A stretch of DNA of 64,000 bases, taken from assembly GCA_031271405.1 (NCBI GenBank), contig JAISVT010000039.1, forward strand, positions 36,149-100,148. The letters run 5' to 3'. Below the pieces are notes generated by a model. It did no database searches, was not told the origin of the DNA, and was given only the letters and a program-made list of their open reading frames with translations. Of the stretch, positions 35,201 to 52,831 are shown piece by piece. Position 1 is the first letter of the stretch. Each line of letters opens with the position of its first letter. A program made the position numbers and the translations under genes. Source of the stretch: Candidatus Endomicrobium macrotermitis. Its GTDB lineage: Bacteria; Elusimicrobiota; Endomicrobiia; Endomicrobiales; Endomicrobiaceae.

Positions 35201-35283
35201 TTACGGCAGGCGAATAGAGGCGTAGGCGCATGGACGCACGGCAAAAACAAAAAGTTTTTCCATGCGTCTGTGCATCTTTTAAT

Positions 35284-36531: not shown

Positions 36532-36668
36532 AAAGTGAAAATATTGCCGTTCGTACTGTAAGATTGTATAAGTCTTTATGCGGAAAGAAGAATGTTGCCG
36601 GCTGCAGCAAACACGATGCGGAGTCAAAAGAGTAAAGTTTAATTTTTGTTGAGGATATCTTCACTCTC
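36526..36668. repeat. Intergenic element with gagtgaa heptamer arms (inverted ends)
   Basis: Left gagtgaaaagtgaaaata, right tatcttcactctc. Confidence 0.6.
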
Positions 36669-36687
36669 ATCTCCGGAGGAGATAATA

Positions 36688-37059
36688 ATGGCGTTTTATT
36701 CGGATAAAGTTATGGATCATTTCGCGAATCCGCGCAATGTCGGCGAAATAAAAGATGCGGACGGCGTAGGCGAAATAGGAAACCCCGTTTGCGGCGATAT
36801 GATGACCTTTTACATTAAAGTAAAAGGCGATAAAATAGAAGACGTGAAATTTAAAACTTTCGGCTGCGGAGCCGCCATAGCCGTTTCGTCCATGGTTTCG
36901 GAAATGGCCAAAGGAAAAACTCTCGACGAAGCTCTTTCCATTACAAACGCCGACGTCGCAAAAGAACTCGGAGGGCTTCCTCCGAACAAAATGCACTGTT
37001 CAAACCTCGGGGCGGACGCTCTTCACAGGGCAATTGAAGATTATAAGAAAAAACAATAA
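36688..37059 (+). CDS. iscU: Fe-S cluster scaffold IscU/NifU-N
   Basis: YSDKVMDHFANPRNVG, CGD, FGCGAAIA, KMHCSNL; SD ggagg. Confidence 0.95.
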   Translation: MAFYSDKVMDHFANPRNVGEIKDADGVGEIGNPVCGDMMTFYIKVKGDKIEDVKFKTFGCGAAIAVSSMVSEMAKGKTLDEALSITNADVAKELGGLPPNKMHCSNLGADALHRAIEDYKKKQ

Positions 37060-37286
37060 TGAAAAAAGAAGAAACGGGAACCGAAAGCCGTTTTTGCGGA
37101 AACTGTAAAAACGGTTCCGGCTGCAATATTTGTCAGACAAAGAAAAATATAAAAATTTGCCCGGCCTGCAAGGCCGAATATCTTGCGCAGTACGGCGAAT
37201 GTCCGTCGTGTTCGGCGGACAAAAAGGAGCGAGGTTATGTCCGCGCGTTTAATAAAAGAGGGGATTTACTCTGTCGGCGCAGTTGA
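37059..37286 (+). CDS. Small Cys-rich (4x CxxC) double-zinc-ribbon-like protein
   Basis: CGNC, CNIC, CPAC, CPSC; starts at the iscU stop; overlaps fprA by ~50 nt. Confidence 0.55.
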   Translation: MKKEETGTESRFCGNCKNGSGCNICQTKKNIKICPACKAEYLAQYGECPSCSADKKERGYVRAFNKRGDLLCRRS

Positions 37287-38430
37287 CTGGAACGAAAGGC
37301 ATTTTCACGGACACACTTACGTTACAAAAAGAGGCGTGACATATAATTCTTACCTGATTATCGACGATAAAATCACTTTGATAGACACCGTCCGCAAAGG
37401 TTTTGAAAAAGAGTTCATAGACAATATCAAAAGCGTAGTCGACCCGTCAAAAATAGACGCCGTGATAATAAACCATATAGAACCGGATCATTCCGGCGCG
37501 TTTCCGGAAATATTAAAACTTTGTCCTGACGCAAATTTTTACGGCACGGAAAAAGCAAAACAGGGTTTGTTCAAATATTACGGCGTTACGGCCAAAAACT
37601 GGACTTCGGTAAAATTCGGGCAAAATATAAATATCGGCAAAAGGACTCTTGAGTTTATAGACGTTCCCATGGTGCACTGGCCGGACAGCATGTTTACTTA
37701 TTCGGCTTACGACAAAGCGCTGTTTTCAAATGACGGTTTCGGCCAGCATTACGCGACCGACAAACTTTTTGACGACGAGGCCGATTTTGCCGTTTTGATG
37801 GAAGAATCGCAAAAGTATTACGCCAATATTTTATGGCCGTTTAACGGCCTTGTGGCGTCAAAACTTGCGGCGATACAAAAATTGAATCTCCCGCTGGAAC
37901 TCGTGCTTCCCAGCCACGGCCTTATCTGGCGCAAACACATATCCGCAATTTTTCAGAAATATCTTTACTGGTCGTCGCACTCATGCCAAAACAAAGTCGC
38001 GATAGTTTATGAAACCATGTGGCAGTCTACCGAAAAAATGGCAAGAAAAATACTTGAAGGAATAATGTCCGAAGGCGTCGAAGCCGCTTTGTTCGACGTT
38101 ACAAAAAACGACAGGACCGACATTTCTTCTTATATGCTTGACGCGAAAGGCTGGGTGTTCGGTTCGTCAACGCATGACGGCGAGATGCTTCCCGCAATAG
38201 CGGGGTTTTTGTGTTTTTTAAAAGGTTCAAAAGCAAAAGGCCGCAAGGCGTTTGCCTTCGGCTCTTACGGCTGGAGCGGCGAAGCGGCAAAAGAAATAGA
38301 AAATACGGCTTCAGGCGTGGCGTCTTTTGAGCCGCCGGTAAAAGCGGTTTTTAATCCTTCGCAAGAAGAACTGCAAAAATGTTTCGAAGCCGGCAAAGAG
38401 TTCGCTAAAAAAATAAAGAGTGCAGAGTGA
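37237..38430 (+). CDS. fprA: Flavodiiron protein (FprA; O2/NO reductase)
   Basis: NHIEPDHSG, HWPD, NDGFGQH, flavodoxin domain YETMWQSTEKMA and FGSYGWSGEA. Confidence 0.95.
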   Translation: MSARLIKEGIYSVGAVDWNERHFHGHTYVTKRGVTYNSYLIIDDKITLIDTVRKGFEKEFIDNIKSVVDPSKIDAVIINHIEPDHSGAFPEILKLCPDANFYGTEKAKQGLFKYYGVTAKNWTSVKFGQNINIGKRTLEFIDVPMVHWPDSMFTYSAYDKALFSNDGFGQHYATDKLFDDEADFAVLMEESQKYYANILWPFNGLVASKLAAIQKLNLPLELVLPSHGLIWRKHISAIFQKYLYWSSHSCQNKVAIVYETMWQSTEKMARKILEGIMSEGVEAALFDVTKNDRTDISSYMLDAKGWVFGSSTHDGEMLPAIAGFLCFLKGSKAKGRKAFAFGSYGWSGEAAKEIENTASGVASFEPPVKAVFNPSQEELQKCFEAGKEFAKKIKSAE

Positions 38431-38472
38431 AGCTGAAGTGTTTTCGCTCTTGTAGTTAAAAAGGAGGCGTAA

Positions 38473-38907
38473 ATGAAAGGATTGGTCTGCAAGTTTTGCG
38501 GCTACGTTGCTCTTGACGGAAAAACCGACGTTTGTCCGGTCTGCCATATGAAAAACGCTTTTGAAGAAAAAGAAGACGCTTATAAAACGCCTGATTTTAA
38601 AGCGGAGAAAGGCGAAAGCGAAAAGAAGCACATTCCTTTTTTTGCTCCGGTAAATGAAAGCGGATTGATACCCGGGACAAAATGCGTCAGGGTAAAGATC
38701 GGCGAAATTCTTCATCCTTCGCTTCCCGAACATTTTATTGCGAACATAACTTTTTATCTGGACAATAAATTTCTGGCACGTATGCAGCTTACGCCGGACG
38801 TCAACCCTGCGGCAGCGGTTCATTTGAAAGAAGGGTCAAAAGGAAAAGTGCAGGTTATAGAAAACTGCAACATTCACGGAAAATGGTATAACGAAACAGA
38901 AATTTAA
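38473..38907 (+). CDS. Superoxide reductase (desulfoferrodoxin family) with N-terminal rubredoxin-like CxxC..CxxC domain
   Basis: CKFC...CPVC; EKKHIP, HPSLPEHFI, CNIHG. Confidence 0.9.
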   Translation: MKGLVCKFCGYVALDGKTDVCPVCHMKNAFEEKEDAYKTPDFKAEKGESEKKHIPFFAPVNESGLIPGTKCVRVKIGEILHPSLPEHFIANITFYLDNKFLARMQLTPDVNPAAAVHLKEGSKGKVQVIENCNIHGKWYNETEI

Positions 38908-38912
38908 TAAGA

Positions 38913-38993
38913 CGGAGTGAAAAGTTAAAAGTGAAGAGTGAAGATAATTCGGTTTCAGAGGAGCTGAAACACAACAACTCAACTCTTCACTCT
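38913..38993. repeat. Intergenic element with gagtgaa heptamer arms
   Basis: cggagtgaaaagttaaaagtgaagagtgaag ... caactcttcactct; another left arm at 39601-39631. Confidence 0.65.
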
Positions 38994-39015
38994 TTTTCTA
39001 AAAAGGGAGGAAGCA

Positions 39016-39594
39016 ATGTCAAAATCGGTTAAAGGAACGCAGACGGAAAAAAATTTGATGCAGTCTTTTGCGGGCGAATCGCAGGCCAGAATGAGGTACA
39101 CCTATTTCGCTTCAAAAGCGAAAAAAGAAGGTTTTGAGCAGATTTCCGCAATTTTTACCGAAACGGCGGACAATGAAAAAGAGCATGCCGAAAGATTTTT
39201 TAAATTTTTGGAAGGCGGAACGGTTGAAGTAAAAGCCTCTTTTCCCGCGGGAATTATAGGGCCTACCACGGAAAACCTTAAAGCCGCGGCGGCAGGCGAA
39301 AATGAAGAACACACTAAGCTTTATCCGGAATTTGCCGATATTGCCGATAAAGAAGGGTTTCCGGAAATAGCCGAATGCTGGAGAAGGGTTTCGGTTGCCG
39401 AAAAACATCATGAAGCCAGATATTTGTACCTTTTAGACAATCTTGATAACGGCAGGGTTTTCAAAAAAGATATGGAAGTCAGATGGAAATGCCGCAACTG
39501 CGGATACGTTTATACGGCGAAAGAAGCCGTAGAAAAATGCCCCGCATGCCTGCACCCGAAAGCCTATATGGAAGAATTGGCAGACAACTTCTAA
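39016..39594 (+). CDS. rbr: Rubrerythrin
   Basis: AGESQARMRY, NEKEHA, GENEEH, EKHHE, C-terminal CRNC...CPAC. Confidence 0.97.
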   Translation: MSKSVKGTQTEKNLMQSFAGESQARMRYTYFASKAKKEGFEQISAIFTETADNEKEHAERFFKFLEGGTVEVKASFPAGIIGPTTENLKAAAAGENEEHTKLYPEFADIADKEGFPEIAECWRRVSVAEKHHEARYLYLLDNLDNGRVFKKDMEVRWKCRNCGYVYTAKEAVEKCPACLHPKAYMEELADNF

Positions 39595-39634
39595 AAAACA
39601 GAGTGAAGAGTTAAAAGTGAAGAGTGAAGATTTT

Positions 39635-39663
39635 GTTTTCGCGGGATTTTATCCCGCGAAAAC
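39635..39663. terminator. Hairpin / terminator after rbr
   Basis: gttttcgcgggat-ttt-atcccgcgaaaac. Confidence 0.7.
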
Positions 39664-39669
39664 GGGTAA

Positions 39670-40500
39670 AACTTTTTCTGCGGTACTAAGTTTCGCAGAA
39701 AGATAATATTTTCACTAGATATTCGGGAAGTATCTATTAATGATATTATAGAACGTATTATTATCGGCGGTTGGCCTGTTAACATCAACAAGACCGAAAC
39801 TGCCGCAAAAAGATTAAATAAATCTTATACCGATTTGCTGGCCGATGTGGATTTGTCAAAGGTTTCCAAAGTATCGCGCGATTCCGGTAAAATAAGAGCT
39901 TTGTTGAAATCTTTGGCGAGAAATATTTCGACGCCTGCAAATATACAGACTTTGACCGATGACGCAAAACAAGATTCCGATACGCTTTCGCGTATAACCG
40001 TAAACGAGTGTTTGGACGCGCTGGAACGCCTTATGATAATTGAAAATCAGCCGGCCTGGAATACTCATATACGCTCGTCTGCGGAATTACGCAAAACCCC
40101 GAAAAGACATTTTGCCGACGTTTCTTTGGCTGTAAGCGTTTTGGGTTTAGACAAGGAATCCATATTGAACGATCCCAAGTATTTAGGTTTTTTATTCGAA
40201 TCTTTGGCGGTCCATAATTTGAGAGTTTATTCGCAGGCAAATGACGCGAGTGTTTACCACTACCGCGATTCAAACAATGATGAAATAGACGCGGTTGTGC
40301 AAAACCGGGCAGGGGAATGGGCAGCTTTTGAGGTCAAACTCGGTTCAGGCGCTTTTGACGAAGCCGCTGAAAATCTGATACGTATCACAAAGAATATTTC
40401 CAAAAAATGCTCTTCGCTTAATATCATTACCGGGACAGGAAACACTTATACCCGTCCTGACGGAGTAAATGTCGTATCTTTGTCGTCTTTGGGAGTATAG
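39670..40500 (+). pseudogene. 5'-truncated AAA+ ATPase / DUF4143 gene fragment
   Basis: IGGWP, TPKRHFAD, GFLFES, YRDSNNDEIDAVV, FEVKLG; in-frame stop at 39667 and no N-terminal ATPase domain. Confidence 0.75.
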
Positions 40501-40526
40501 CTTCCGTCATGAAAGCAGTAAGTTAA

Positions 40527-43500
40527 ATGAGCAAAACATATTTGTCGCAAGCCGGGGGCGCGGGTAAGGCCCATTATCTTTTTAAACGCATTTTTGAGGA
40601 ACAGGGTGCCGGGGGTACCCCCGATACAAAATTGCGCGTTTTTGCTTTTGTCAAAGACGAAGAACTTAATTCCTTTTACGATGACGTTAAGGCATTCTTC
40701 CAGTCTTCCGGTTTTCCCGTCTTAATTTTTCCTTCCGATGACGTTCAGCAAAGGACTTTTGCGGCCGATAAAATCAAAAAATTGAACGGTTTTATTCTTT
40801 GCGCGTCCGATATTTCCATAAACGCGCCGGTTTCCGCGCCTGATGCCGACGAAGGCATAACCCTGCGTAAAAATGTGAATTTTAAGTTTGCGGATTTTAT
40901 ATCCGCTTTGGTCAAAATCGGTTATGAACGCGTTCATTTTGCCGAAGATAAATGCCAGTTTGCGGTGCGCGGAGACATTGTCGATATCTGGCCTGCCGCA
41001 AGCGATACTCCCGTAAGAGTATTGTTCGAATACGACAATATAGACGCCGTCAGAGCCTTTGATCCCGGCACGCAGCTTTCCAATAATTTCATAGACGAAA
41101 TAAAGATTTTGCCCGTAAAAGAAACGGGGCACGGTTTTACGATTAAAGACTATTTTAAATGGCGGAGCGAAGAGCGGGGAGTGAAGAGTGTAGATGAAGA
41201 CAATGGATTGCTTCTTCCGGCTAAAACATTCGAGGGCGGGCTTTCCAGCAATGACGGCCGAAAAGGGGTTATTCCCCCTGAGGGGTCTGCCGTTAACGCC
41301 GCGCTTCTTTTCTTTGACTATCCTTTGTCCAAAGAAGAAGAAAAACAATATGAAAACGGCGAAGTTATCATAAACGACCCGTTAAATCCGAAATCGCAGT
41401 CCCAGGGGTATAAAAGTTTTACGGGTTTGGCGGGCGGTTTTCAGGGAAACATCAAATATTTTGTAGAAACAGTAAAGGGGTTTGCCGAAAATAAAGTCAA
41501 GATAAAAATATACTGCGCAAACGACGGGGAAAGGGAAAGAATCGCGGATATTTTTCATGAAAGCGGGTGGGAAGGAAAACCGCCGGAATTTGTTTACGGC
41601 AATCTTTCTCAGGGGTTTTATTTAGAAAAAGAAAACCTTGCCGCAATATCAAGCCGCGAAATGCTTTATAAGAAAAAGCCGGTAAGTTTTCCCAAAATCA
41701 AGGGCGGCAGGAGATTAGAAGGAATTTGGGAAATATCGGCAGGCGATTATGTAGTGCACGAAAAATACGGGATAGGGCGTTATAAAGGATTAAAAACCAT
41801 TTCGCGCCATGACAAAACTTCCGAATATCTTTGCATAGAATACACAAAAGGCGACAAACTTTATGTTCCGCCGGAAGAAATAAAAACCGTAAAAAAATAT
41901 ATAGGCGTTGAAGGAGTGAAGCCGAAACTTTATTCTATGGACACCTTCGCGTGGGAAAGGGTCAAATCCAGAGCGCGCGAAGCTGCCGCGGAGTTTGCCA
42001 AAGAACTTTTAAAGCTCTACGCCGAAAGAAGTAAAATAAAAAGGACGCCTTTTGCCCGCGAAACTCCGTGGGAAAAAGAACTCGAAGACGCTTTCCCTTA
42101 TGACGAAACCCCCGATCAGCTTAAAGCCATAGAAGACGTAAAAAGCGATTTTTTAAAGCCTTACCCTATGGAAAGGCTTGTCTGCGGCGACGTAGGCTAC
42201 GGGAAAACCGAAGTTGCGGTGCGAGCCGCGTTTAAAGCCGTTCAGGAAAATTTTCAGGCCGCCGTTTTGGTGCCGACAACGGTTTTGGCGCAGCAGCATT
42301 TTAACACTTTTTACAACAGGCTCTCGCCTTTCCCTACAAGGGTGGAAGTTTTAAGCAGGTTTCAGTCTAAAGCAAACCAAAAAAAGCTCATAGCCGAACT
42401 TGAGCAGGGCAAAATAGATATTATTGTAGGCACGCACCGGCTTTTGCAAAAAGACGTCAAATTTAAAAATCTCGGTATTTTGATAGTTGACGAAGAGCAC
42501 CGTTTCGGCGTAAAGCAGAAAGAAAAAATCAAAACCATGAAGAAAAACATAGATATTTTAATGCTTTCGGCAACGCCTATTCCCAGAACATTGTCATCGG
42601 CTTTGTCGGGTTTTAGGGATTTGTCGGTAATAGAAACTCCTCCTTTCGGAAGGCTTCCGATAGAAACGTCCCTTTCTGCGTACGACGAAAAACTTGTTAA
42701 AAACATAATACAGGCGGAACTTGCGCGAAACGGACAGGTTTTTTACGTTTATAATAAAGTTGAAACCATCCTTACCAAAGCCGAACAAATCAAAAAACTC
42801 GTGCCGGACGCAAAGCTCGGAGTCATTCACGGCCAGATGCACGCAAAAGACATAGAAAACATAATGTGGAAATTTACGAATATGGAACTCGATATTTTAA
42901 TCGCCACTACAATAATAGAGTCCGGCCTTGATATTCCTTCGGTCAATACGATGATTATAGAAGAATCTGAAAATTTCGGCCTTTCCCAGCTTTACCAGCT
43001 TCGCGGGAGAATAGGCAGGGACAGGAAAAAGGCGTACTGCTATCTTTTTTATAAAGACAAAACTTTAAGCGGCGAAGCGGTAAAAAGGCTTGAAGCCATG
43101 AAAGAGTTCAGCGAGCTTGGCTCGGGTTTCAGGCTTGCGCTTAAAGACCTTGAAATAAGGGGCGCCGGCGGGATACTTTCCGCAAACCAGCACGGTTTTG
43201 TGCGCGATATAGGCTACGATATGTTTTCCAAACTTCTTGAAGAAGAGGGCAAAAAAATAAAAGGCGAAAGCGCAAGCAAAACTTCCGCAAAAGAAAACGG
43301 CGAAATAGATTTGAAAGTCAACGCGTTAATACCCCAAACCTATATTGAAGACGAAGACATAAGAATACTGTTTTACAGAAAGCTTTCGGACGCGCGAAAC
43401 GCCGAAACTCTGGACAAAGTCAAAGAAGAACTGACAGACCGTTTCGGAAAACTTCCGCAAGAAGTCAAAACGCTCTTTGAAATTACGGCGTTAAGGCTTA

Positions 43501-43745
43501 AAGCCCGGGAATTCGATATCGAAAGGATATCGGAAGACAACAACTATATATATGTGTATTTTTCGAATGAAGCCGATTTCTCAAGCGCCGATATACCCAT
43601 GCTTATAAAGAATTATTCAAAAGAGATTGAATTTATAAACGGAAAAGGCTACGCTTTCAAACTCAAGAAATACGAAATAAGCGTTCCCGCTTTGGAATAT
43701 ATAAAGGCGCTTCTTGCAAAGCTGGGGAATTATTTTAAAAAATGA
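40527..43745 (+). CDS. mfd: Transcription-repair coupling factor
   Basis: FAVRGDIVDIWP, GDYVVHEKYGIG, ETPDQ, CGDVGYGKTEVA, VDEEHRFGV, SATPIPRT, QLRGRIGR. Confidence 0.96.
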   Translation: MSKTYLSQAGGAGKAHYLFKRIFEEQGAGGTPDTKLRVFAFVKDEELNSFYDDVKAFFQSSGFPVLIFPSDDVQQRTFAADKIKKLNGFILCASDISINAPVSAPDADEGITLRKNVNFKFADFISALVKIGYERVHFAEDKCQFAVRGDIVDIWPAASDTPVRVLFEYDNIDAVRAFDPGTQLSNNFIDEIKILPVKETGHGFTIKDYFKWRSEERGVKSVDEDNGLLLPAKTFEGGLSSNDGRKGVIPPEGSAVNAALLFFDYPLSKEEEKQYENGEVIINDPLNPKSQSQGYKSFTGLAGGFQGNIKYFVETVKGFAENKVKIKIYCANDGERERIADIFHESGWEGKPPEFVYGNLSQGFYLEKENLAAISSREMLYKKKPVSFPKIKGGRRLEGIWEISAGDYVVHEKYGIGRYKGLKTISRHDKTSEYLCIEYTKGDKLYVPPEEIKTVKKYIGVEGVKPKLYSMDTFAWERVKSRAREAAAEFAKELLKLYAERSKIKRTPFARETPWEKELEDAFPYDETPDQLKAIEDVKSDFLKPYPMERLVCGDVGYGKTEVAVRAAFKAVQENFQAAVLVPTTVLAQQHFNTFYNRLSPFPTRVEVLSRFQSKANQKKLIAELEQGKIDIIVGTHRLLQKDVKFKNLGILIVDEEHRFGVKQKEKIKTMKKNIDILMLSATPIPRTLSSALSGFRDLSVIETPPFGRLPIETSLSAYDEKLVKNIIQAELARNGQVFYVYNKVETILTKAEQIKKLVPDAKLGVIHGQMHAKDIENIMWKFTNMELDILIATTIIESGLDIPSVNTMIIEESENFGLSQLYQLRGRIGRDRKKAYCYLFYKDKTLSGEAVKRLEAMKEFSELGSGFRLALKDLEIRGAGGILSANQHGFVRDIGYDMFSKLLEEEGKKIKGESASKTSAKENGEIDLKVNALIPQTYIEDEDIRILFYRKLSDARNAETLDKVKEELTDRFGKLPQEVKTLFEITALRLKAREFDIERISEDNNYIYVYFSNEADFSSADIPMLIKNYSKEIEFINGKGYAFKLKKYEISVPALEYIKALLAKLGNYFKK
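41159..41297 (+). repeat. Repeat-derived in-frame insertion in mfd
   Basis: cggagcgaagag...gagtgaagagtg, ggattgcttc...gcaatgac, tctgccgttaac; segments shared with the ispE insertions. Confidence 0.7.
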
Positions 43746-43831
43746 GATGTTTCGCGGCATTTCTGCATACTTTTTGAACGTCTGCAAAAAGTACGGCAGG
43801 GGCCGGTGGGCGCGCAGCGCTCCCTGTCAAA

Positions 43832-43860
43832 TTGACTAATATTTCCTAAAATAGTAACAT
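43832..43860 (+). promoter_or_regulatory. Sigma70 promoter of the foldase-pdxA-ispE block
   Basis: TTGACT-N17-TAACAT. Confidence 0.55.
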
Positions 43861-43899
43861 TTACGAATTAGCAGATTGTAATTAAAAGGAGCAGTAACG

Positions 43900-44820
43900 A
43901 TGAAGAAAATTTTATTGTTTGCGGCGTTTGCCGTGCTGGGGCTTGGAGCCTGCAAGGATGGCGGCAATCTTGTCGCAAAAGTAGGCGGAACTAAAATAAC
44001 CGAAGCGGCTCTTGAAGAAAAGCTTGCGGCAACGCCTCCGTCTTATCAAAGTTACGTAAATACTCCCGCCGGCAGAAAGCAGTTTGTAGATTCTGTCATA
44101 AGGGAAGCCATAGTGGTAGAGTCGGCGAAACAGGCCGGAGCGGAAAAGAAGAAAGAGTATTCCGAGGCTTTGAAAGAATTTAAGGCCGAACAGGAAAGGC
44201 AGTACGAAGAATATAAAAACGGGCTTTTGATAGAAACTTACATAAGAGAAGTCCATAACGGCATAGCGGCAAGCGACGAAGAAATTAACGCTTACTATGA
44301 AGCCAATAAAGAGCAGTTTGAAAAACCGGTCGCGTTTACCGTAAAACACATTTTAGTTTCCGATAAAGCCGAAGCCGAAGCCGCTTACGCAAGGCTTGAA
44401 AAAGGCGAAAATTTCGATAAAGTGGCCAAAGAAGTTTCACAGGACAAAGCTTCCGCTCAAACCGGCGGTCTTATAGGGCCGTTCAGAAAGGGCGAACTTG
44501 TTCCCGAATTCGAGCAAGCGGCTTTAAATCTTAAAAAGAACGAAATGTCGGGGCTTGTCGAAACGCTTTACGGTTATCACATAATACTTAAAGTTTCCGA
44601 TCAGGTTCTTCCGGCCATTCCCCTTGAAGACGCAAAGGCCGAAATCAGAAGAACGCTCGAAAAAGACAGATTTGAGAAATGGTTTGAAGATAAGAGAAAA
44701 AGCCTCGGCGTACAGGTAAACTACGATTTGCCCATAGTTTCAGGCGCGGTTATTCCGCAGGAAGAAAGCGAAATAATCGAAGTTGAAGAAGAAGCGGCAG
44801 CAACACCTGCGGTAAAATAA
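43900..44820 (+). CDS. PrsA/PpiC-type parvulin foldase lipoprotein
   Basis: Lipobox LGAC; KHILV, FDKVAKEVSQD, GGLIG, PEFEQAA, YGYHII. Confidence 0.88.
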   Translation: MKKILLFAAFAVLGLGACKDGGNLVAKVGGTKITEAALEEKLAATPPSYQSYVNTPAGRKQFVDSVIREAIVVESAKQAGAEKKKEYSEALKEFKAEQERQYEEYKNGLLIETYIREVHNGIAASDEEINAYYEANKEQFEKPVAFTVKHILVSDKAEAEAAYARLEKGENFDKVAKEVSQDKASAQTGGLIGPFRKGELVPEFEQAALNLKKNEMSGLVETLYGYHIILKVSDQVLPAIPLEDAKAEIRRTLEKDRFEKWFEDKRKSLGVQVNYDLPIVSGAVIPQEESEIIEVEEEAAATPAVK

Positions 44821-44838
44821 AAAATACGGGAGCGGAAA

Positions 44839-45894
44839 ATGACTAGAAGAAATCTGACGGCTGTTTTAGTATCGGTTTTTTTTGCGGCCAACGTCTTTGC
44901 GGCGTCCGAAGTCGTAGACCAGACGATTGCCGTAGTAAACGGAGAGCCTATTTTTACGTCGGAATTTAATGCCGTACTTATGCCTATGATCGAACAGTAC
45001 AAACAGACGGTTCCCGCGGCGGAACAGTCTGACGCTAAAATCAACGAACTTAAAGATAACGTTTTGAACCAGAAAGTTGACGACACTCTTTTGAAACAGG
45101 AAGTTAAAAAACAGAAAGTTAAAGTTTCGAAGAAAGAGATTCAGGAGGGAGTCGCCCAGATAAAGCAAAGGTTTGCAAACGAATCCGAATTTGCGGCCGA
45201 ACTTAAAAAAGAAAATATGTCGGTTTCCGCGTTCGAAAAGAAACTTGAAGAGCAGCTTGCCGTTATGAAGCTTGTAAGGCAAACGGTGGATTCGAAAGTT
45301 AAACCCCCGACCGAAGCGGAAGTGAAAAGTTTTTACGATCAGGTCCTGATAAAAATGAAAGGCGGAGTATCGGGGCTTTCCGCGGAAGAAGACGCGTTGG
45401 CCGCCAACCTTTCGGTTTTTCTTAAAAGAATGTCCGGCGAGCAGGTAAGAATAAGGCAGATCTTCATAAACAGCCCGAAAACCGCAACTCCCGAAGAAGC
45501 AAAAGCCGCGCAGTCGAGAGTAAGCGCTGTTAAAAAGGCGCTTCAGGGCGGTGAAGGTTTTGCAGAAGCCGCGGGCAAGTATTCCGAAGATGCTGCTTCC
45601 AAAGCCAGAAACGGAGACCTCGGCATAGTGGTCAAAGGCGATTTGCTTCCCGAAATAGACAAAAAAGTTTTTGCAATGTCGGTAGGCGATTATACGAAAG
45701 AACCGATCAAGACCGACACCGGGTACCACTTTATAAGAGTCGAAGAAAAAAGAGCGAGCAAAGATTATTCTTTTGACGAAGTGAAAAGCGACATAGGCGA
45801 GCTTTTGTATCAGAACAGCGCAAGACAGGCATACGCGAACTATATAAAAGATTTGAGAGCGAATGCCAATATAAAAGAAAATAAATCCTGGTAA
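44839..45894 (+). CDS. surA: SurA-like periplasmic chaperone/parvulin
   Basis: Signal peptide; VDQTIAVVNGEPI; IRQIFI, YSED, GDLG, TGYHFIRV; adjacent to pdxA. Confidence 0.8.
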   Translation: MTRRNLTAVLVSVFFAANVFAASEVVDQTIAVVNGEPIFTSEFNAVLMPMIEQYKQTVPAAEQSDAKINELKDNVLNQKVDDTLLKQEVKKQKVKVSKKEIQEGVAQIKQRFANESEFAAELKKENMSVSAFEKKLEEQLAVMKLVRQTVDSKVKPPTEAEVKSFYDQVLIKMKGGVSGLSAEEDALAANLSVFLKRMSGEQVRIRQIFINSPKTATPEEAKAAQSRVSAVKKALQGGEGFAEAAGKYSEDAASKARNGDLGIVVKGDLLPEIDKKVFAMSVGDYTKEPIKTDTGYHFIRVEEKRASKDYSFDEVKSDIGELLYQNSARQAYANYIKDLRANANIKENKSW

Positions 45895-45899
45895 ATAAT

Positions 45900-46946
45900 A
45901 TGAGCGGGACAGTGTCCCAAAAACCGCGTATCGCAATAACTTTAGGCGATCCCGCGGGCATAGGAAGCGAAATAGTTTTAAGGGCTGTAAATTCTTTGGA
46001 AGTCCAAAGGGTTTGCAGCCCTGTCATTTTCGGAGACGAAGCGGCAGTTAAAAATTATGAATTACGAATTACGAATTACGATTTTGTTTCAACTTCGAAT
46101 GTCGGCAAAATAATGCTTTGCAAACCTTCGAAAAAGTCCGGAATAGCGGCTTTTAACGCAATAAAAGCGGCGGTGCAGTTTTGCCTTGACGGCAAAGCCG
46201 GCGCTTTGGTCACGGCTCCGGTATCGAAAGAATCGTTAAAACTTGCCGGAGTCAAATATCCGGGACATACCGAACTTTTGGCGGCTTTGACAAAAAGCCG
46301 CGATGTTGCCATGCTTATGGCATGCGGCGAAATTTTAAGCGTAATGGTAACAAGGCACATACCTCTTTCGCAGGTTTCGAAGAAATTAAAAACCGCAGAT
46401 ATAGTAAAAACGGTCCGTATTGCCGCTGATTTCCTGTCCGTCATTACGACGGGCAAAGCCCCGAAGCAATCCGGGGCGGTTGATTCCGCGCTTCGCTCTT
46501 TAAACTCCAAACTGCCTTTAAAAGTTGCTCTCTGCGCCCTAAACCCTCATGCAGGCGACAACGGCATTTTAGGCAATGAAGAAAAGAAAATAATCTATCC
46601 CGCTTGCGGGCTTTTAAAAAAAATGAAAATAGACGTTTCGGCTCCGATACCGGCGGATTCCGCCTGGCTTAAAACGAAAAACGGCGAATTTGACCTTATA
46701 TGCGGAATGTATCACGATCAAATAATGATACCTCTGAAATGCATAGACGCAAAAAAAATAGTAAACGTCACGGCAGGCCTGCCTTTCGTAAGAACTTCCC
46801 CGGGGCACGGCACGGCGTTTGACATAGCCGGCAAAGGCAAAGCCGATCCGTCGGCTATGATAGAAGCTATACTTTTTGCCGCAAAAGCCGTAAAGAACAA
46901 AGCGCAGATATGCGCGGGCAAAAGGATTTTTAATGGAACTCGTTGA
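45900..46946 (+). CDS. pdxA: 4-hydroxythreonine-4-phosphate dehydrogenase
   Basis: GDPAGIG, TAPVSK, PGHTE, LNPHAG, MYHDQ, RTSPGHGTAFDIAG. Confidence 0.93.
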   Translation: MSGTVSQKPRIAITLGDPAGIGSEIVLRAVNSLEVQRVCSPVIFGDEAAVKNYELRITNYDFVSTSNVGKIMLCKPSKKSGIAAFNAIKAAVQFCLDGKAGALVTAPVSKESLKLAGVKYPGHTELLAALTKSRDVAMLMACGEILSVMVTRHIPLSQVSKKLKTADIVKTVRIAADFLSVITTGKAPKQSGAVDSALRSLNSKLPLKVALCALNPHAGDNGILGNEEKKIIYPACGLLKKMKIDVSAPIPADSAWLKTKNGEFDLICGMYHDQIMIPLKCIDAKKIVNVTAGLPFVRTSPGHGTAFDIAGKGKADPSAMIEAILFAAKAVKNKAQICAGKRIFNGTR

Positions 46947-47376
46947 GTTCTCGCCGGATTTTTTAAATGATATAATAGCCATAGAAAACGAGTCTTTCCC
47001 GAATCCCTGGAAAGAAAAAATGTTTCTCGATTCCGCGGCCAACCGGCTTGTAGAGTTTAAAGTAGCCGTTGAAAACGGAAAAACCGCGGGGTACTGTTTG
47101 TTTTGGGTCGCGGGAGACCAGTCCGAAATATTAAGCATTGCCGTTTCTTTGCAGTTCAGGCGTCGATCTTTCGCGAAACAAATGCTTGAATATATAATCG
47201 GGCGTTCAAAAGAAAAAGGCGCGCAGTGCGTTTTTCTTGATGTCAGGGCGGGAAATGCCGCGGCGGTCAAGCTGTACGATTCTTTCGGTTTTGAAAAAAC
47301 CGGCATCAGAAAAAAATATTATCCGGGCGCGGGCGGCGGCGAAGACGCGTTAATTTTAAGGAAAAAATTGAAATGA
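46933..47376 (+). CDS. rimI: RimI-like GNAT acetyltransferase
   Basis: IENESFPNPW, EILSIAV, LDVRAGN..A..LY..FGF...G.RKKYY, EDALI. Confidence 0.9.
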   Translation: MELVEFSPDFLNDIIAIENESFPNPWKEKMFLDSAANRLVEFKVAVENGKTAGYCLFWVAGDQSEILSIAVSLQFRRRSFAKQMLEYIIGRSKEKGAQCVFLDVRAGNAAAVKLYDSFGFEKTGIRKKYYPGAGGGEDALILRKKLK

Positions 47377-49568
47377 AAAAAAGCATAGCTTTAGCTTTAG
47401 GGTTTATATTTTTTGCGCAAAGCGCGGCGTTTGCGTCTAATTTCGAAGCGTATAAGTCTTACCTTAAAGGCGTTTTGGCTTTGAAAGACGGAGAAATCGA
47501 GGAAGCCAGAAAAGAATACGAAAAAACGGTTTCTTCGGATGAGCGGGCTTTGGCTGTGTCCAAAGATTTGGTTTATATGTACTGGCAGGCCGGAAATAAA
47601 GACAAGGCTTTTCAAACCGCGGAAAAAATAGAAAAAGCTGACGGAAACAATCCCCAGACGTCGATTTTTCTGGGCGTGTTTTATCTTGTCGCAAACGAAC
47701 CCGACAAAGCCAAACGGCATTGGCAGGAAACCCTGCGCCTTGACCCGGAAAACGAAACCGCTACGGCTTACCTTGCCGCCTATTATTATTCGGACAACAA
47801 ACTGAAGGAGTCAGCCGAATACTGGAACAAATTTTTAGCCCGGCAGCCGGATTCGGCCTCGGGCTATCTGCAGCTTGCTTTGGTTCAGGAAAAACTGGGC
47901 AAAACCGAAGAGGCTTTGAAATCTTTCGACAAAGTCATATCTTTAAAACCCGAAGCGAGGGAAGCTTACCTTTCTAAAGCGAGAATATACGAAACGAATA
48001 AGCAATACGACTCGGCGATCAAAGAGTATGAAGAGTATGTAAAATTTTTCCCGGACAATATTTACGTTTTGATGTATCTGGGGAAATGTTATTTTGATAA
48101 GGGCGATTATCCGTCAGCCGAAAAAATATTTTTAAAAACGAAAAAAGCGCTTGGTTCCGATATAACATCAAGCTATTGGCTGGGAGTCGCATACGAAAAA
48201 TCCGGAAAAATAGACAAAGCGGCCGCGGAATTCGAAGACGTGTATAAGAAAGAAAAGGGTATCGAGATACTTGCGCGTCTGGGCTATTATTACTCGCTTC
48301 TTAAAGATTACTCGAAAGCCGACAGGGAGTTCAAATCCGCTTTGGACGAAGAACCGTTCAACCACGAGCTTTTGTACCTGAGGGCGTTAAATTATATGGA
48401 TTGGGAAAGGTACGATAATGCCGTCCGGTACTTTATAAAAACAATCGAATTAAAGCCCGATTTTGCCGACGCGTATTTCTTTTTGGGTTCCGCACATGAA
48501 AAAAACGGACATTTTGACAATGCCGAAAAAGCGTTTTTACAGGCTTTAGAAATAGATCCCGACCACACAAGAGCATTGAATTATCTGGGATATATGTATG
48601 CGGACAGAGACATAAAGCACGAAGAGGCCGAACGGTATTTGACAAGGGCGCTGACTCTTGAGCCGCAAAACGGCGCGTATCAGGATTCGCTCGGCTGGCT
48701 TTATTACAGACAGGGCAAATACGAAAGCGCCGCGCAGGTTTTGCTGTCCGCGTCAACACTTACCAGAGACCCTCTGGTTTACGACCATTTAGGCGATGTC
48801 TATGTGGCGCTCGGCAGGATAGGCGACGCATGGGTGGCGTACGCTTTGTCTTACGATATAAAAGCCGACAAAAACGTTAAAAAGAAACTCAATATGACGC
48901 AGGAGAATATTCCGAAAGACGAGCTGTATAAGCAGATGCTTTTAAGAAGCGAAAGCAATTATCTTAAATTGTTTTCTTTTAAAACCGGCTTTGTTTCAAA
49001 ATTCAGTTCCGGAGTTTTGAGTTTAAAAACCTACATCCCTTTCAATTATGTTAAAAATGAAGGCATAAGCCTGGAAATTCCCGGAAGGTTTATTCCGGGC
49101 GGGGCGGCAGCGTATATGGAAAACGGCGAAGTGTCGTATATGCCTAAAGCCGTAGGGGATTCCGTGCCCGCCGAAATGGCGGAAATGATAGATTTTGCCG
49201 CGTCCGTTTTTAATAAAGATTTTTACGGACATTTCGCCGACGCGCAAATCGAACATAAAGGCAAAAGAATCATTTACTCGGCGGCTGACGGTTCGCAGCT
49301 GGTTTTAAACTCCGAAAACGCTTTGATAGAAAAAATCTCGAAAAACGGCATAACCGTAAAGATTTCCGAATATAAAAGTTTCGCGGTTTCCAAACTTCCG
49401 TCAAAAATTACGGTCAAATCCGAAAATTTGAAAGTGAAAGCTGCTTTTGAAGCCGGAAAATTTTCTTTTTCGGACAAAACACATATAAAAGGCATCGCAT
49501 TGCCGGCGGCTGAACCGCCGCAGGCGGAAGAAAATGAACCTGACAATAAAGACTCCGGCAAAAATTAA
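47373..49568 (+). CDS. Exported TPR protein with C-terminal LolB/LolA-like beta domain
   Basis: Signal peptide; TPRs incl. ALNYLGYMYAD and YQDSLGWLYY..G; beta-rich C-terminus. Confidence 0.85.
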   Translation: MKKSIALALGFIFFAQSAAFASNFEAYKSYLKGVLALKDGEIEEARKEYEKTVSSDERALAVSKDLVYMYWQAGNKDKAFQTAEKIEKADGNNPQTSIFLGVFYLVANEPDKAKRHWQETLRLDPENETATAYLAAYYYSDNKLKESAEYWNKFLARQPDSASGYLQLALVQEKLGKTEEALKSFDKVISLKPEAREAYLSKARIYETNKQYDSAIKEYEEYVKFFPDNIYVLMYLGKCYFDKGDYPSAEKIFLKTKKALGSDITSSYWLGVAYEKSGKIDKAAAEFEDVYKKEKGIEILARLGYYYSLLKDYSKADREFKSALDEEPFNHELLYLRALNYMDWERYDNAVRYFIKTIELKPDFADAYFFLGSAHEKNGHFDNAEKAFLQALEIDPDHTRALNYLGYMYADRDIKHEEAERYLTRALTLEPQNGAYQDSLGWLYYRQGKYESAAQVLLSASTLTRDPLVYDHLGDVYVALGRIGDAWVAYALSYDIKADKNVKKKLNMTQENIPKDELYKQMLLRSESNYLKLFSFKTGFVSKFSSGVLSLKTYIPFNYVKNEGISLEIPGRFIPGGAAAYMENGEVSYMPKAVGDSVPAEMAEMIDFAASVFNKDFYGHFADAQIEHKGKRIIYSAADGSQLVLNSENALIEKISKNGITVKISEYKSFAVSKLPSKITVKSENLKVKAAFEAGKFSFSDKTHIKGIALPAAEPPQAEENEPDNKDSGKN

Positions 49569-50553
49569 TTTATTTCTTGAAATAACGGAAAAAAGGCCTG
49601 ACGGTTACCATAACCTGGAATCTATAATGCAAACCGTAGGCCTCTGCGACGAATTGTCCTTTGAACCGGCGGAAAAAGACATAGCGTTATCCGTCATCGG
49701 CTCCGGACGGAATCCGGGTTCGCCCGTCATTCCCGAAATTCACGGCCGTGAATCTGCCGTTAACTCAATTGCATCTCTTCCAACGGAACAAAACATCGTT
49801 TTCAAAGCAGCCAAGGCCTTAAAAGAAAACTTCAACGTACAAAAAGGCATAAAAATAACTTTAAAGAAAAACATACCTTCCGGCGCAGGTCTCGGCGGCG
49901 GCTCTTCGGACGCCGCGGCAACTGTCAATGCTCTTGTAAAACTTTGGGGCATAAAAGCCGAAAAGTCCGAACTTAATAAAATCGCCTCAAAACTCGGCGC
50001 CGACGTCCCGTTTTTCCTTACGGGCGGCACCGCATTGTGCGAAGGGATAGGAGACATTGTCTCGCCGTTGGCGGGACGGAGCGGAGAGTTAAGAGTGAAG
50101 AGTGAAAATAAATATGCCGCTGCGGGCGGAATTGAAAATTCCGCGGAGCAATCCGATGTTGCCGGTTCCGCGCTACGCGCTTCAAACTTCAAACTGAATG
50201 CGGTTCTCGTAAATCCCGGCTTCGGCGTTCCGACGCCGTCGGTGTATAAAAAGGTCAAACTCCCGTTTACAAATACGCGTAAAATTGATAAAATCAAAAA
50301 CCTGATTGAAAAAGGTTCTTTCAACGCCGAAAGCGCAAAAGAAGTATGTTTTAACAGGCTCGAAGACTTCGTCTTCGGCGATTATCCCGAGATAAAAAAA
50401 ATAAAAGATATTTTGGCGTCTTTGGGCTGCGCGAGCCTTATGTCCGGCTCCGGCGCAACGGTTTTCGGCATATACGATAAGCCGGTTGAGCAAAAAATCA
50501 AAGCCGGACTTGAAAAACATAATTGGAACTTTTGGTTTACGGAAACAATATAA
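49534..50553 (+). CDS. ispE: 4-diphosphocytidyl-2-C-methyl-D-erythritol kinase
   Basis: PAKINLFL, DGYHNLES, KNIPSGAGLGGGSSDAA, LGADVPFF, MSGSGATVF; two non-canonical insertions. Confidence 0.95.
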   Translation: MNLTIKTPAKINLFLEITEKRPDGYHNLESIMQTVGLCDELSFEPAEKDIALSVIGSGRNPGSPVIPEIHGRESAVNSIASLPTEQNIVFKAAKALKENFNVQKGIKITLKKNIPSGAGLGGGSSDAAATVNALVKLWGIKAEKSELNKIASKLGADVPFFLTGGTALCEGIGDIVSPLAGRSGELRVKSENKYAAAGGIENSAEQSDVAGSALRASNFKLNAVLVNPGFGVPTPSVYKKVKLPFTNTRKIDKIKNLIEKGSFNAESAKEVCFNRLEDFVFGDYPEIKKIKDILASLGCASLMSGSGATVFGIYDKPVEQKIKAGLEKHNWNFWFTETI

Positions 50554-50605
50554 TCGGTTTGTCCGTCATTTCCGAGCGTATCCCGCTTTTAACCCCTATG
50601 TCAAT

Positions 50606-50676
50606 TCCGGGATGGTGTAATGGTAGCACAAGGGATTTTGGATCCCTTTGTCTAGGTTCGAATCCTAGTCCCGGAG
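50606..50676 (+). tRNA. tRNA-Gln (anticodon TTG), no encoded CCA
   Basis: tccggga/tcccgga acceptor stem, D-arm ggtgtaatggtagcac, anticodon arm aggga-ttttgga-tccct, T-loop ggttcgaatcc. Confidence 0.95.
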
Positions 50677-50694
50677 TATCCTTTTTTGCTTTGC

Positions 50695-50919
50695 CTTTGA
50701 AGTTTTTACTTCCTTTTTACCGGGAGTTCAAACTTCCAAACAGTTTTCAATATAATACTAATCCGAATTATGCCATTACGCGCATTAGTAAGGTCTGTCA
50801 ATCCTGCGCGGCAGCCGCAGGATCTATAAATAACGCCTTTCCAATAGACCCTGCGACGGACGATTGCCCCCGCTGTCAATGGATAGCCATGATACTGATA
50901 ATAGATGTATGCGGCAATT
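50695..50919. repeat. Direct repeat copy 1 (palindromic atcctgcg..cgcaggat core)
   Basis: 50796-50919 matches 52709-52831 with about 6 differences; upstream 24-mer ctttgaagtttttacttccttttt also shared. Confidence 0.9.
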
Positions 50920-51099
50920 TTATGCCGTAAATGCCGCGTTTCAACAAAGTCCAAAAACTTATTAAGTTCGTTAAAAATGTAAAACAGTTCTAATTTCTTT
51001 AAACTTAAGAACTAAAATATAAAAATTGTTCTTATCTGGTTGTAAAATAGAACAAAATATGCTAATTTGTTCTTATCTTTTTATGAAAAGGAACAAATT

Positions 51100-52254
51100 A
51101 TGAAGAATTTAATAGGAACTTACCGCTTGCAGCCGGAAAGATTTATGGCTTTTATCCCAAATCCATTTCCTCCTAAACTTGATAATCTTCCGATTACAAT
51201 TATACAAAAACATACTGAAGCAGTTCGTCTTTTAGGTAAACTTGACGGAATAACGCAAATTTTACCGGATAAAGACTGCTTTTTAGAGATGTTTGTCCGC
51301 AAGGACGCTTCCAGTTCAAGCCAAATAGAAGGAACAAGAGCAACAATGATAGATGCCATTGAGGCACTTAACGTTGACAAGAGCAGTAATATACCTTCGG
51401 ATGTTGACGATATTTTGCACTATATAGATGCTTTAAATTACGGTTTAACACGCGCTGTTGATTTTCCGTTTACTTTGCGCTTTATAAAAGAACTTCATTC
51501 AAAACTTATGGTAGGCGCGCGTTCAACTCATCATGCTTATCCCGGAGAGTTTAGAAGCACTCAAAATTGGATTGGCGGAACGCGTCCCGATAACGCCCGT
51601 TTCGTGCCGCCGCCGGTGAGCGAAATGGTTTCGGCAATGAATGATTTTGAAAATTTTATACATGACGATAAAGATTTTATGCCTCTGATAAAGGCGGCAT
51701 TGCTGCACGCGCAATTTGAAACTATCCATCCCTTTGTAGATGGAAACGGCAGGACGGGCAGAATGATTGTAACTATGTATTTGTGGCATAAAAATTTTTT
51801 GGAATCGCCGGTTTTATATTTATCTGCATACTTTAAGCGCCACCAAGAAATTTATTATGAAAAGTTAGATAGTTATCACAATGATAAAAGCGATGTTTCC
51901 GGTTGGATTGATTTCTTTTTAGACGGGATAATTGATATTGCAAAAGAATCCATAGCAACTTGCCGTGAAATAATGTCTTTGCGGGAACAAGATATGCACA
52001 AACTGGCAAGCCTCGGTAAAGGGTCTGCCGAAAGCACAATGAAAGTTCTCAAAGAATTATATAGAATACCTACGGTAGGCGTTTCCGATATAGCAAAATG
52101 GACGGGGTTTACACAGCGCGGGGCAGATAAAGTTATTGAACGGTTGGAAAAAATGGGTATTTTAGAACCGCTTAATCCAAATGAAAACTATGCACGGAAA
52201 TTTATTTATAAAAAATACGTAAATTTGTTTTTTGATAAAAATAATACGCGTTAA
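51100..52254 (+). CDS. Fic family protein with N-terminal inhibitory motif
   Basis: HPFVDGNGRTGR; SSQIEG; C-terminal wHTH-like region. Confidence 0.92.
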   Translation: MKNLIGTYRLQPERFMAFIPNPFPPKLDNLPITIIQKHTEAVRLLGKLDGITQILPDKDCFLEMFVRKDASSSSQIEGTRATMIDAIEALNVDKSSNIPSDVDDILHYIDALNYGLTRAVDFPFTLRFIKELHSKLMVGARSTHHAYPGEFRSTQNWIGGTRPDNARFVPPPVSEMVSAMNDFENFIHDDKDFMPLIKAALLHAQFETIHPFVDGNGRTGRMIVTMYLWHKNFLESPVLYLSAYFKRHQEIYYEKLDSYHNDKSDVSGWIDFFLDGIIDIAKESIATCREIMSLREQDMHKLASLGKGSAESTMKVLKELYRIPTVGVSDIAKWTGFTQRGADKVIERLEKMGILEPLNPNENYARKFIYKKYVNLFFDKNNTR

Positions 52255-52309
52255 AAAGTTTTCGGTTATGATCGTGCCCAAGAGGAAGAAAAGTAAAAAG
52301 GAGATACTT

Positions 52310-52645
52310 ATGAGCAACAGAGCTTACTGCGGTCTTGACTGCGATAGCTGCGACGCATTTATCGCGACAAAAAACAATGACGACGCGCTGCGCGAAAAAA
52401 CGGCAAAAAGCTGGAGCGCTATGAACAATGTTGAAATTAAGCCCGAACATATAAACTGTACGGGCTGCAAATCTGACGGCGTGAAAACTTTTTTCTGCTC
52501 AAATCTCTGCGAAATAAGGAAGTGCAATATAGAAAGAAAAGCCGACAACTGCTCTTCCTGTGACAAATACCCCTGCGAGCCCGAAAATAACGTAGTAACA
52601 AGTTCTAAAGACGCCAAAGATTTTATAGAGTCTTTAAAGAAATAA
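52310..52645 (+). CDS. DUF3795-like Cys-rich protein
   Basis: AYCGLDCDSC, CTGC, CEIRKC, CSSC..YPC; SD aaggag. Confidence 0.8.
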   Translation: MSNRAYCGLDCDSCDAFIATKNNDDALREKTAKSWSAMNNVEIKPEHINCTGCKSDGVKTFFCSNLCEIRKCNIERKADNCSSCDKYPCEPENNVVTSSKDAKDFIESLKK

Positions 52646-52665
52646 ACCTGTAAAAATCTTATCCG

Positions 52666-52831
52666 CTTTGAAGTTTTTACTTCCTTTTTGCAAATATGCG
52701 TATTAGCATGTCATCCTGCGCGGCAGTCGCAGGATCTATAAATAACGCCTTTCCCATAGACCCTGCGATGGACGATTGTCCCCGCTGTCAATGGATAGCC
52801 ATGATACTGATAATAGGTGTATGCGGCAATT
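52666..52831. repeat. Direct repeat copy 2
   Basis: See copy 1. Confidence 0.9.

Follow-up and report, generated by a model that had tools for sequence, protein, structure and literature searches.

To our knowledge, Rickettsia is the only textbook case of selfish repeats lying in frame within essential genes. Short hairpins assembled into mosaics are known from REP/BIME and from Neisseria dRS3/NIME, REP and dRS3 being classically extragenic, and Elhai et al. (2008) are said to have described the nested small dispersed repeats of cyanobacteria. The Rickettsia palindromic elements (RPEs) are inserted in frame in genes (Ogata et al. 2000, as summarised in PMC10969869), and a 2024 review of MITEs considers a similar route of protein evolution merely conceivable in other prokaryotes (PMC10969869). 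Heptanucleotide tandem repeats include three in Calothrix PCC 7601 and GGGGAYT in Nostoc, occur also in xanthomonads and are reported as under-represented within coding sequence (PMC4692102). A literature search for links between Endomicrobium or Endomicrobia and such repeats found no paper, the matches to 'palindromic' being CRISPR mentions.

Here we describe ispE of Candidatus Endomicrobium macrotermitis, located in a window of 64,000 nt (the whole stretch of DNA analysed). The window belongs to contig 21 of a 64-contig bin of 1.89 Mb, 99.7% complete, from a termite-gut metagenome. This source genome (G000) was compared in particular with Endomicrobium proavitum (G001) and with two other genomes of the same genus, G002 and G003.

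The ispE gene and its two inserts

The first-pass annotation had described an essential ispE carrying two in-frame repeat insertions. This description holds: the gene is present in a single copy, as judged by a homologue search of the 1.89-Mb genome, and both inserts are missing in most of 19 relatives, the 20-sequence alignment displaying two extra blocks in the present protein. Similarly, IspE of most of 40 related genomes matches in three pieces (~1-53, 80-180 and 220-339), skipping residues 54-79 and 181-219. The product is 339 aa long compared to about 283-295 in relatives. It carries the GHMP_kinases_N (E 1.8e-20) and GHMP_kinases_C domains of Pfam, and its PDB matches 1uek (4e-31) and E. 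coli 1oj4 are solved IspE structures. Homologues in a collection of 5.8 billion proteins are nearly all 280-295 aa long and named IspE of Endomicrobium or Endomicrobia; none closer than about 60% identity was found in this collection. The kinase motifs, reported earlier as intact, are indeed retained: an alignment of 39 sequences has 40 invariant columns, and the protein agrees with every one of them, among others K10, N12, the G-rich loop 119-125, D157 and SGSG 304-307.

The AF2 model of IspE has a mean pLDDT of 83.7, with 222 residues above 90, and its best Foldseek matches are the IspE structures 1uek and 2v2q (TM 0.85). As anticipated in the first-pass annotation, alignment and model place the inserts in predicted loops: pLDDT falls below 50 solely at residues 61-79 and 182-214, both without secondary structure in the model and flanked by conserved elements (strand 50-55 and helix 76-81 for the former, strands 175-178 and 222-227 for the latter). 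We consider it very probable that ispE is a working single-copy essential gene with two permissive surface loops occupied by repeat fragments. Directly 3′ of ispE lies a tRNA-Gln(ttg) gene (50605-50677), followed by a 24-mer and a ~119-nt repeat (50801-50919 and 52713-52831, 96% identity) bracketing the next genes (region 50695-52831).

Table 1. Positions in the window of ispE, its inserts and related repeat copies
Feature	Position	Strand	Description
ispE	49534-50553	+	4-diphosphocytidyl-2-C-methyl-D-erythritol kinase, 339-aa ORF; Pfam, PDB, AF2 and Foldseek matches
Insert 1	49693-49764	+	72 nt, V54-N77, read as VIGSGRNPGSPVIPEIHGRESAVN; from 19-relative protein alignment and congener DNA
Hairpin unit 1 of insert 1	49693-49715	+	GTCATCGGCTCCGGACGGAATCC; GTCATC...GGAATCC, degenerate, stem TCCGTC/GACGGA
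Hairpin unit 2 of insert 1	49726-49755	+	GTCATTCCCGAAATTCACGGCCGTGAATCT; GTCATTCCCGAAAT...GTGAATCT
Element end of insert 1	49753-49764	+	TCTGCCGTTAAC, read S-A-V-N
Insert 2	50077-50190	+	114 nt, 38 aa, R182-F219, read as RSGELRVKSENKYAAAGGIENSAEQSDVAGSALRASNF; boundaries versus G003
Left heptamer arm of insert 2	50079-50109	+	GAGCGGA GAGTTAA GAGTGAA GAGTGAA AAT; 31 nt, (GAGYKRA)4
Central hairpin of insert 2	50126-50144	+	GCGGAATTGAAAATTCCGC, small; centroid structure
Right half of insert 2	50141-50196	+	Shared with pdxA, same frame
pdxA sibling copy	46459-46514	+	Read as PKQSGAVDSALRSLNSKL
(AATTAYG)4 array in pdxA	46053-46080	+	Read NYELRITNY; second heptamer family
Intergenic reference copy	38915-38995	+	Both heptamer arms still pair, z = -2.6
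Arm copy at ORF end	36526-36543	+	1 mismatch to GAGTGAAGAGTGAAAATA; partner arm near 36655-36668
Composite element in mfd	41164-41297	+	Heptamer arm, inner modules, TCTGCCGTTAAC end; Mfd by Pfam

Both inserts proved shorter than first described, while their repeat content stands. Insert 1, initially given as ~49690-49775 (~25 aa), covers about 22-24 aa in all, with a net gain over the E. proavitum IspE of about 22 aa (Table 1). Its two hairpin units both fit the pattern GTCATY-N8-30-GAATCY, which occurs in 58 copies in the 1.89-Mb genome compared to 2 for the reversed control. Covarying stems were observed in 30 copies (CTGCG/CGCAG, CCCGA/TCGGG, CCGGC/GCCGG and CCGTG/CACGG). Unit 1 is a weak member of the family, with a similar 22-mer at C19:12273, and unit 2 contains a perfect 16-nt palindrome at 49738-49753. 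The best sibling of unit 2 together with the TCTGCCGTTAAC end was found at C29:4749(-); its local score is 39, the highest among 3000 random windows being 32. This TCTGCCGTTAAC end also terminates the mfd insert, and the rsmA and fabF inserts owe their 'SAVN/SAVI' peptides to it. Inverted, it corresponds to ACGGCAGAG, which is located ahead of many heptamer arms. At C29 ~4700-4750 (-), the hairpin module of insert 1 lies in frame in a 317-aa ORF and is read in the same frame as in ispE (VIPEICNWESAVS versus VIPEIHGRESAVNS). By eye, we take this ORF to be a candidate CRISPR RAMP-type protein (GYGKKASSGYGHFEV).

Insert 2, initially placed at ~50071-50195 (~40 aa), is missing from the same-genus genomes G003 and G001. 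Its left arm matches the profile of the arm family (nhmmer E=6e-4) and shares an exact 23-mer with C59:42619-42641. The 18-mer at 50093-50110 (GAGTGAAGAGTGAAAATA) has six matches in the window with up to three mismatches, compared to 0.12 expected by chance, and the intergenic occurrence of this arm at 36526, pointed out previously, was recovered. The ORF 35230-36531 ends within this copy and has its TGA stop inside the repeat; its reading frame apparently takes its terminus from the element. The earlier assignment of the right arm to pdxA was likewise confirmed: an ungapped comparison of 50141-50196 with the pdxA copy gave 42/56 identities (75%) and a score of 47, the maximum for 3000 random genome windows being 26. 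The shared stretch encodes frame-matched peptides, SALRASNFKL and SALRSLNSKL, and on the ispE side closes with a reverse heptamer arm in degenerate form (50173-50196, CTACGCG CTTCAAA CTTCAAA CTG). For the centre of insert 2, no other copy was found in the genome.

Repeat families and the reading-frame constraint

The modules found in ispE are dispersed throughout the genome. The 16-mer AGTGAAGAGTGAAGAT (up to two mismatches) is present in 78 copies compared to 3 for its reversed control. With the arm profile, 62 sites were detected at E≤1, many of them in plus/minus pairs 2-100 nt apart which fold into long hairpins. Tandem units of period 7 identified by TRF in the source genome include AAGAGTG (33 arrays), AATTACG (18) and AAAAGTG (16), other units being found in E. 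proavitum. The GAGTGAA arm is also abundant in G002 (58 copies versus 1 for the control) and to a lesser extent in G003 (35 versus 13), and is at background in E. proavitum and in 37 genomes of other genera. Two other modules occur in all four congeners with zero control copies: (AATTACG)3 with 49, 11, 171 and 49 copies and CTCGCCCCTTGCGGGAGAGG with 19, 11, 19 and 28 copies.

These results suggest a repertoire of four recognisable kinds of modules from which the elements are assembled: (a) 7-base arrays of GAGTGAA or AATTACG type, whose intergenic copies are arranged in inverted pairs and fold into extended hairpins; (b) short hairpins of the form GTCATT-stem-loop-stem-AATCC, the stems of which covary; (c) the CTCGCCCCTTGCGGGAGAGG hairpin; and (d) putative ends, ACGGCAGAG and CTCTGCCGT. 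Roughly one strong arm in three is preceded by the former end, and several elements are closed by the latter; not every element has such ends, and part of the 10-mer enrichment is due to base composition. At C2:44440-44760 of the source genome, three tandem copies ~65 nt apart, each starting with TTAACGGCAGA, carry GGAAGYY-type heptamers and their inverse, a further heptamer family. An excess of AACGGCA (1037 versus 186 expected) was rejected as compositional, since many CG-rich heptamers, such as GCCGCCG and CGGCAAA, reach 10-16 times the prediction from base composition in a zero-order model of this genome. For motifs containing GC, expectations calculated in this simple way can therefore not be relied upon in this case.

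At least eight genes contain a heptamer arm in frame: mfd, ispE, rsmA, tyrA, miaA, valS, fabF and one unknown. The corresponding proteins are Mfd, IspE, RsmA/KsgA, prephenate dehydrogenase, MiaA, ValS, beta-ketoacyl synthase and the product of an unknown 599-aa ORF. The named hosts were confirmed by Pfam, with domain matches split or stretched; in particular, the C-terminal domain match of the fabF product is split by the insert. All eight coding copies (8/8) yield the same kind of peptide from the arm, (S)EE[LW][RG][VLA]KS[EVG][DN]. This can be traced to the reading frame. Runs of GAGTGAA place a TGA in every frame unless the units vary, and among the 62 arms, frame 0 alone is open in 29 and no frame is open in 16. 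Coding arms use frame 0 in every case (8/8), and in six of them it is the sole open frame. Eight unrelated proteins thus share a peptide because the heptamer arm has a single stop-free frame.

The first-pass annotation had viewed the inserts as products of a genome-wide repeat family creating new peptide loops in core enzymes. The dispersed modules, the eight in-frame hosts and the low-confidence loops of the model support this view. A count of coding and non-coding copies, also suggested at that stage, gave about 13% of intragenic heptamer arms (8/62 with the profile), and 14/89 arrays are located inside ORFs for which E. proavitum has an orthologue, although some of these are doubtful. A ~70-aa insert is present both in the beta-ketoacyl synthase at C58:49649-50986 (-) and in RsmA at C29:34616-35581 (-). 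Their inner peptide is near-identical (PSPLAGGSPRNNEDES.AGARCERPGSEEKRGE...GEGSAV), which indicates that one long composite element is present in both genes.

At the genome-wide level, insertions of at least 8 aa relative to E. proavitum show no overall excess (96 versus 92), and inserted segments with BLAST-detectable copies elsewhere number 21/96 compared to 13/95 for control segments. This count is an underestimate and is not taken as support here, as the strict gap definition on which it relied passed over the large inserts of fabF, rsmA and mfd. Given the absence of an excess and the weak BLAST detection, the recognisable phenomenon concerns about a dozen genes, not hundreds.

A function of the inserts at the RNA level was considered and rejected: the two ispE inserts fold no better than shuffled sequences (z 0.23 and 0.05), unlike the intergenic copy at 38915-38995 (Table 1). 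No Rfam family besides tRNA-Gln was found in 36000-51500. Searches of the genome found no RAYT and no IS110 transposase. The sole Y1 transposase is an IS200-like TnpA (C32:54459-54815, 171-aa ORF, PF01797 130 bits). An interpretation of the repeats as REPs mobilised by a RAYT was discarded, as the flanks of this TnpA hold none of the modules and its ends are not shared. No target-site duplication was found, no pair with an empty site being near enough to read one.

Origin and history of the inserts

Our reading, in which we have considerable confidence, is that permissive loops of IspE underwent an RPE-like colonisation by mosaic, Endomicrobium-specific repeats, which would have arrived in frame and would be translated and tolerated. 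Survivorship is the best-supported account of the pattern: among insertions, those that are in frame, stop-free and tolerated in a loop would remain, a logic already described for the RPEs (PMC10969869). A genic copy would persist only if its length were a multiple of three bases, if it introduced no stop in the host frame and if it fell in a tolerant loop. Retained inserts would then be inherited with the host gene and translated into disordered loops, of ~22 and ~38 residues in IspE, while drifting and losing their capacity to fold into hairpins. The ispE inserts are probably neutral passengers.

Comparison of the same sites in congeners is informative about the history of the inserts. In IspE, sites 1 and 2 of G002 are both filled with (AATTACG)n, site 1 of G003 contains a CTCGCCCC hairpin and its site 2 is empty, and both sites are empty in E. 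proavitum. The Mfd site is occupied in 4/4 congeners by four different units (GAGTGAA-type in G000, AATTACG in G002, GGAGGAA in G003 and AAGTGAA in E. proavitum, where the in-frame array reads ...RQSEKRKVESENN...). The pdxA sites resemble it in being occupied in most congeners with differing content; at the site of the pdxA sibling copy, E. proavitum is empty and G002 holds a complete heptamer hairpin. Five insertion events within 10 kb had been proposed initially. Five occupied sites are indeed present, yet they should not be counted as five events in this lineage, since all or most congeners also have something inserted at the mfd and pdxA sites.

In addition, unrelated inserts of 35-50 aa were observed at IspE site 2 in G019 and G005, from another genus, one of them bounded by GGCGCATTCGCGCC palindromes which read GAFAP at each end. 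In E. proavitum, in-frame heptamer arms (QSEKWKVESEI, repeated) occur at 1,332,532-1,335,515 in adjacent ORFs of 365 and 510 aa. Another arm lies in frame at 607,335-607,460 in a 746-aa ORF, and the DNA of this insert has 32 further copies in the genome.

A competing view of this history and its mechanism, which leaves the repeat origin of the inserts unaffected, is that a single ancestral colonisation of the IspE, mfd, pdxA and rsmA sites was followed by repeated overwriting, with repeats preferentially inserting into existing repeats or recombining with them, as on a landing pad. We find this quite possible, if somewhat short of an even chance. The occupation of the same sites by different modules in each congener, most strikingly at the Mfd site, speaks in its favour, as do the rsmA-like ORFs of the source genome and E. 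proavitum (1,332,532-1,333,626 in the latter), where in each case arms follow immediately on the motif FLKLQS, the orthology of the two ORFs being judged from position and motif. The source genome and G002 inserts at IspE site 2 also have the right end CAAACTG in common, which hints at the overwriting of an old insertion. However, the clean, empty IspE site 2 of G003 and E. proavitum could equally reflect a later independent gain or a loss, selection of permissive loops alone would also cluster independent insertions, and nested or intermediate forms were not reconstructed. A stronger version, rather doubtful to us, would have the heptamer-array hairpin elements of Endomicrobium spread without a conventional transposase, re-target sites already holding repeats and quickly swap the content of fixed landing pads in essential genes. 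If true, structure-directed insertion and replacement would be continually rewriting the surface loops of core enzymes.

It is quite improbable, on the other hand, that the inserts serve IspE as lineage-specific loops with a function, for instance in regulation or partner binding, and are repeat-like by chance or long domesticated. An essential gene keeps them in frame and open, and the peptide motif common to eight proteins could in principle serve as a recognition tag; nevertheless, this peptide is forced by the lone stop-free frame, both loops are predicted to be disordered, and at the DNA level they resemble intergenic copies and pdxA far more than chance would allow. Insert sequences are not conserved even within the genus, and the differing or empty content of the sites in congeners shows that the inserts of ispE do not count among the conserved features of the protein. 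The first-pass annotation had named one finding that would contradict it, namely inserts that are ancient, conserved and without relation to intergenic repeats; this is not what was observed.

Finally, although repeats in a 64-contig metagenome bin are classic sites of mis-assembly, a chimera or a pseudogene has a negligible likelihood here, as the reading frame of one and the same gene continues on both sides of each insert, the contig of a second assembler (same run; 4,536 nt, depth 10) spans 49400-50700 with 0 differences and no alternative joints, and the sole ispE of a 99.7% complete genome keeps all invariant residues. DNA of the organism was located in the source sequencing run alone, and no insert-less form of ispE was detected among the contigs of that run, which drop rare variants.

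The colonisation of permissive loops, which remains our preferred reading, has practical consequences. Proteins are lengthened by such inserts and their domain matches interrupted, and both annotation and phylogenomics can be led astray. Since E. proavitum, a cultured type strain with a closed genome, has in-frame arrays in Mfd and in the RsmA-like ORF, translation, tolerance and turnover are amenable to bench experiments.

Comparison with known systems

Like the cyanobacterial heptamers, those of Endomicrobium comprise several dispersed tandem families per genome, mostly intergenic and near gene ends. Unlike them, the Endomicrobium arrays form inverted hairpin pairs, are joined to other modules and lie for a fraction in frame in genes. 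The GTCATT-stem-loop-stem-AATCC units resemble REP/BIME and dRS3/NIME in their conserved flanks, covarying stems and mosaic assembly, and differ from REP and dRS3 in that no RAYT or IS110/Piv-type gene was found.

The closest parallel is with the RPEs. Both are small palindromic repeats dispersed in intergenic regions and in frame in unrelated housekeeping genes. In both, the inserted copy is stop-free in the host frame, yields a recurring peptide, occupies a position tolerated by the fold and degrades after insertion. The differences are nonetheless substantial. The Endomicrobium elements are found in Elusimicrobiota (class Endomicrobiia), in a gut-associated genus that counts one free-living cultured species among its members and in a phylum distinct from that of the RPE hosts. 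They are mosaics of 7-base arrays and hairpins of 23-37 nt, whereas RPEs are units of ~100-150 bp with family-wide conservation. About 13% of Endomicrobium arms are intragenic, compared to nearly half in some RPE families, and orthologous sites hold differing modules in sister species. Homology to RPE families 1-10 is therefore unlikely, the Endomicrobium elements being set apart by phylum and by module structure. The Elusimicrobiota case thus parallels that of Rickettsia with a different and far more modular element, and with a loop content that varies between sister species.
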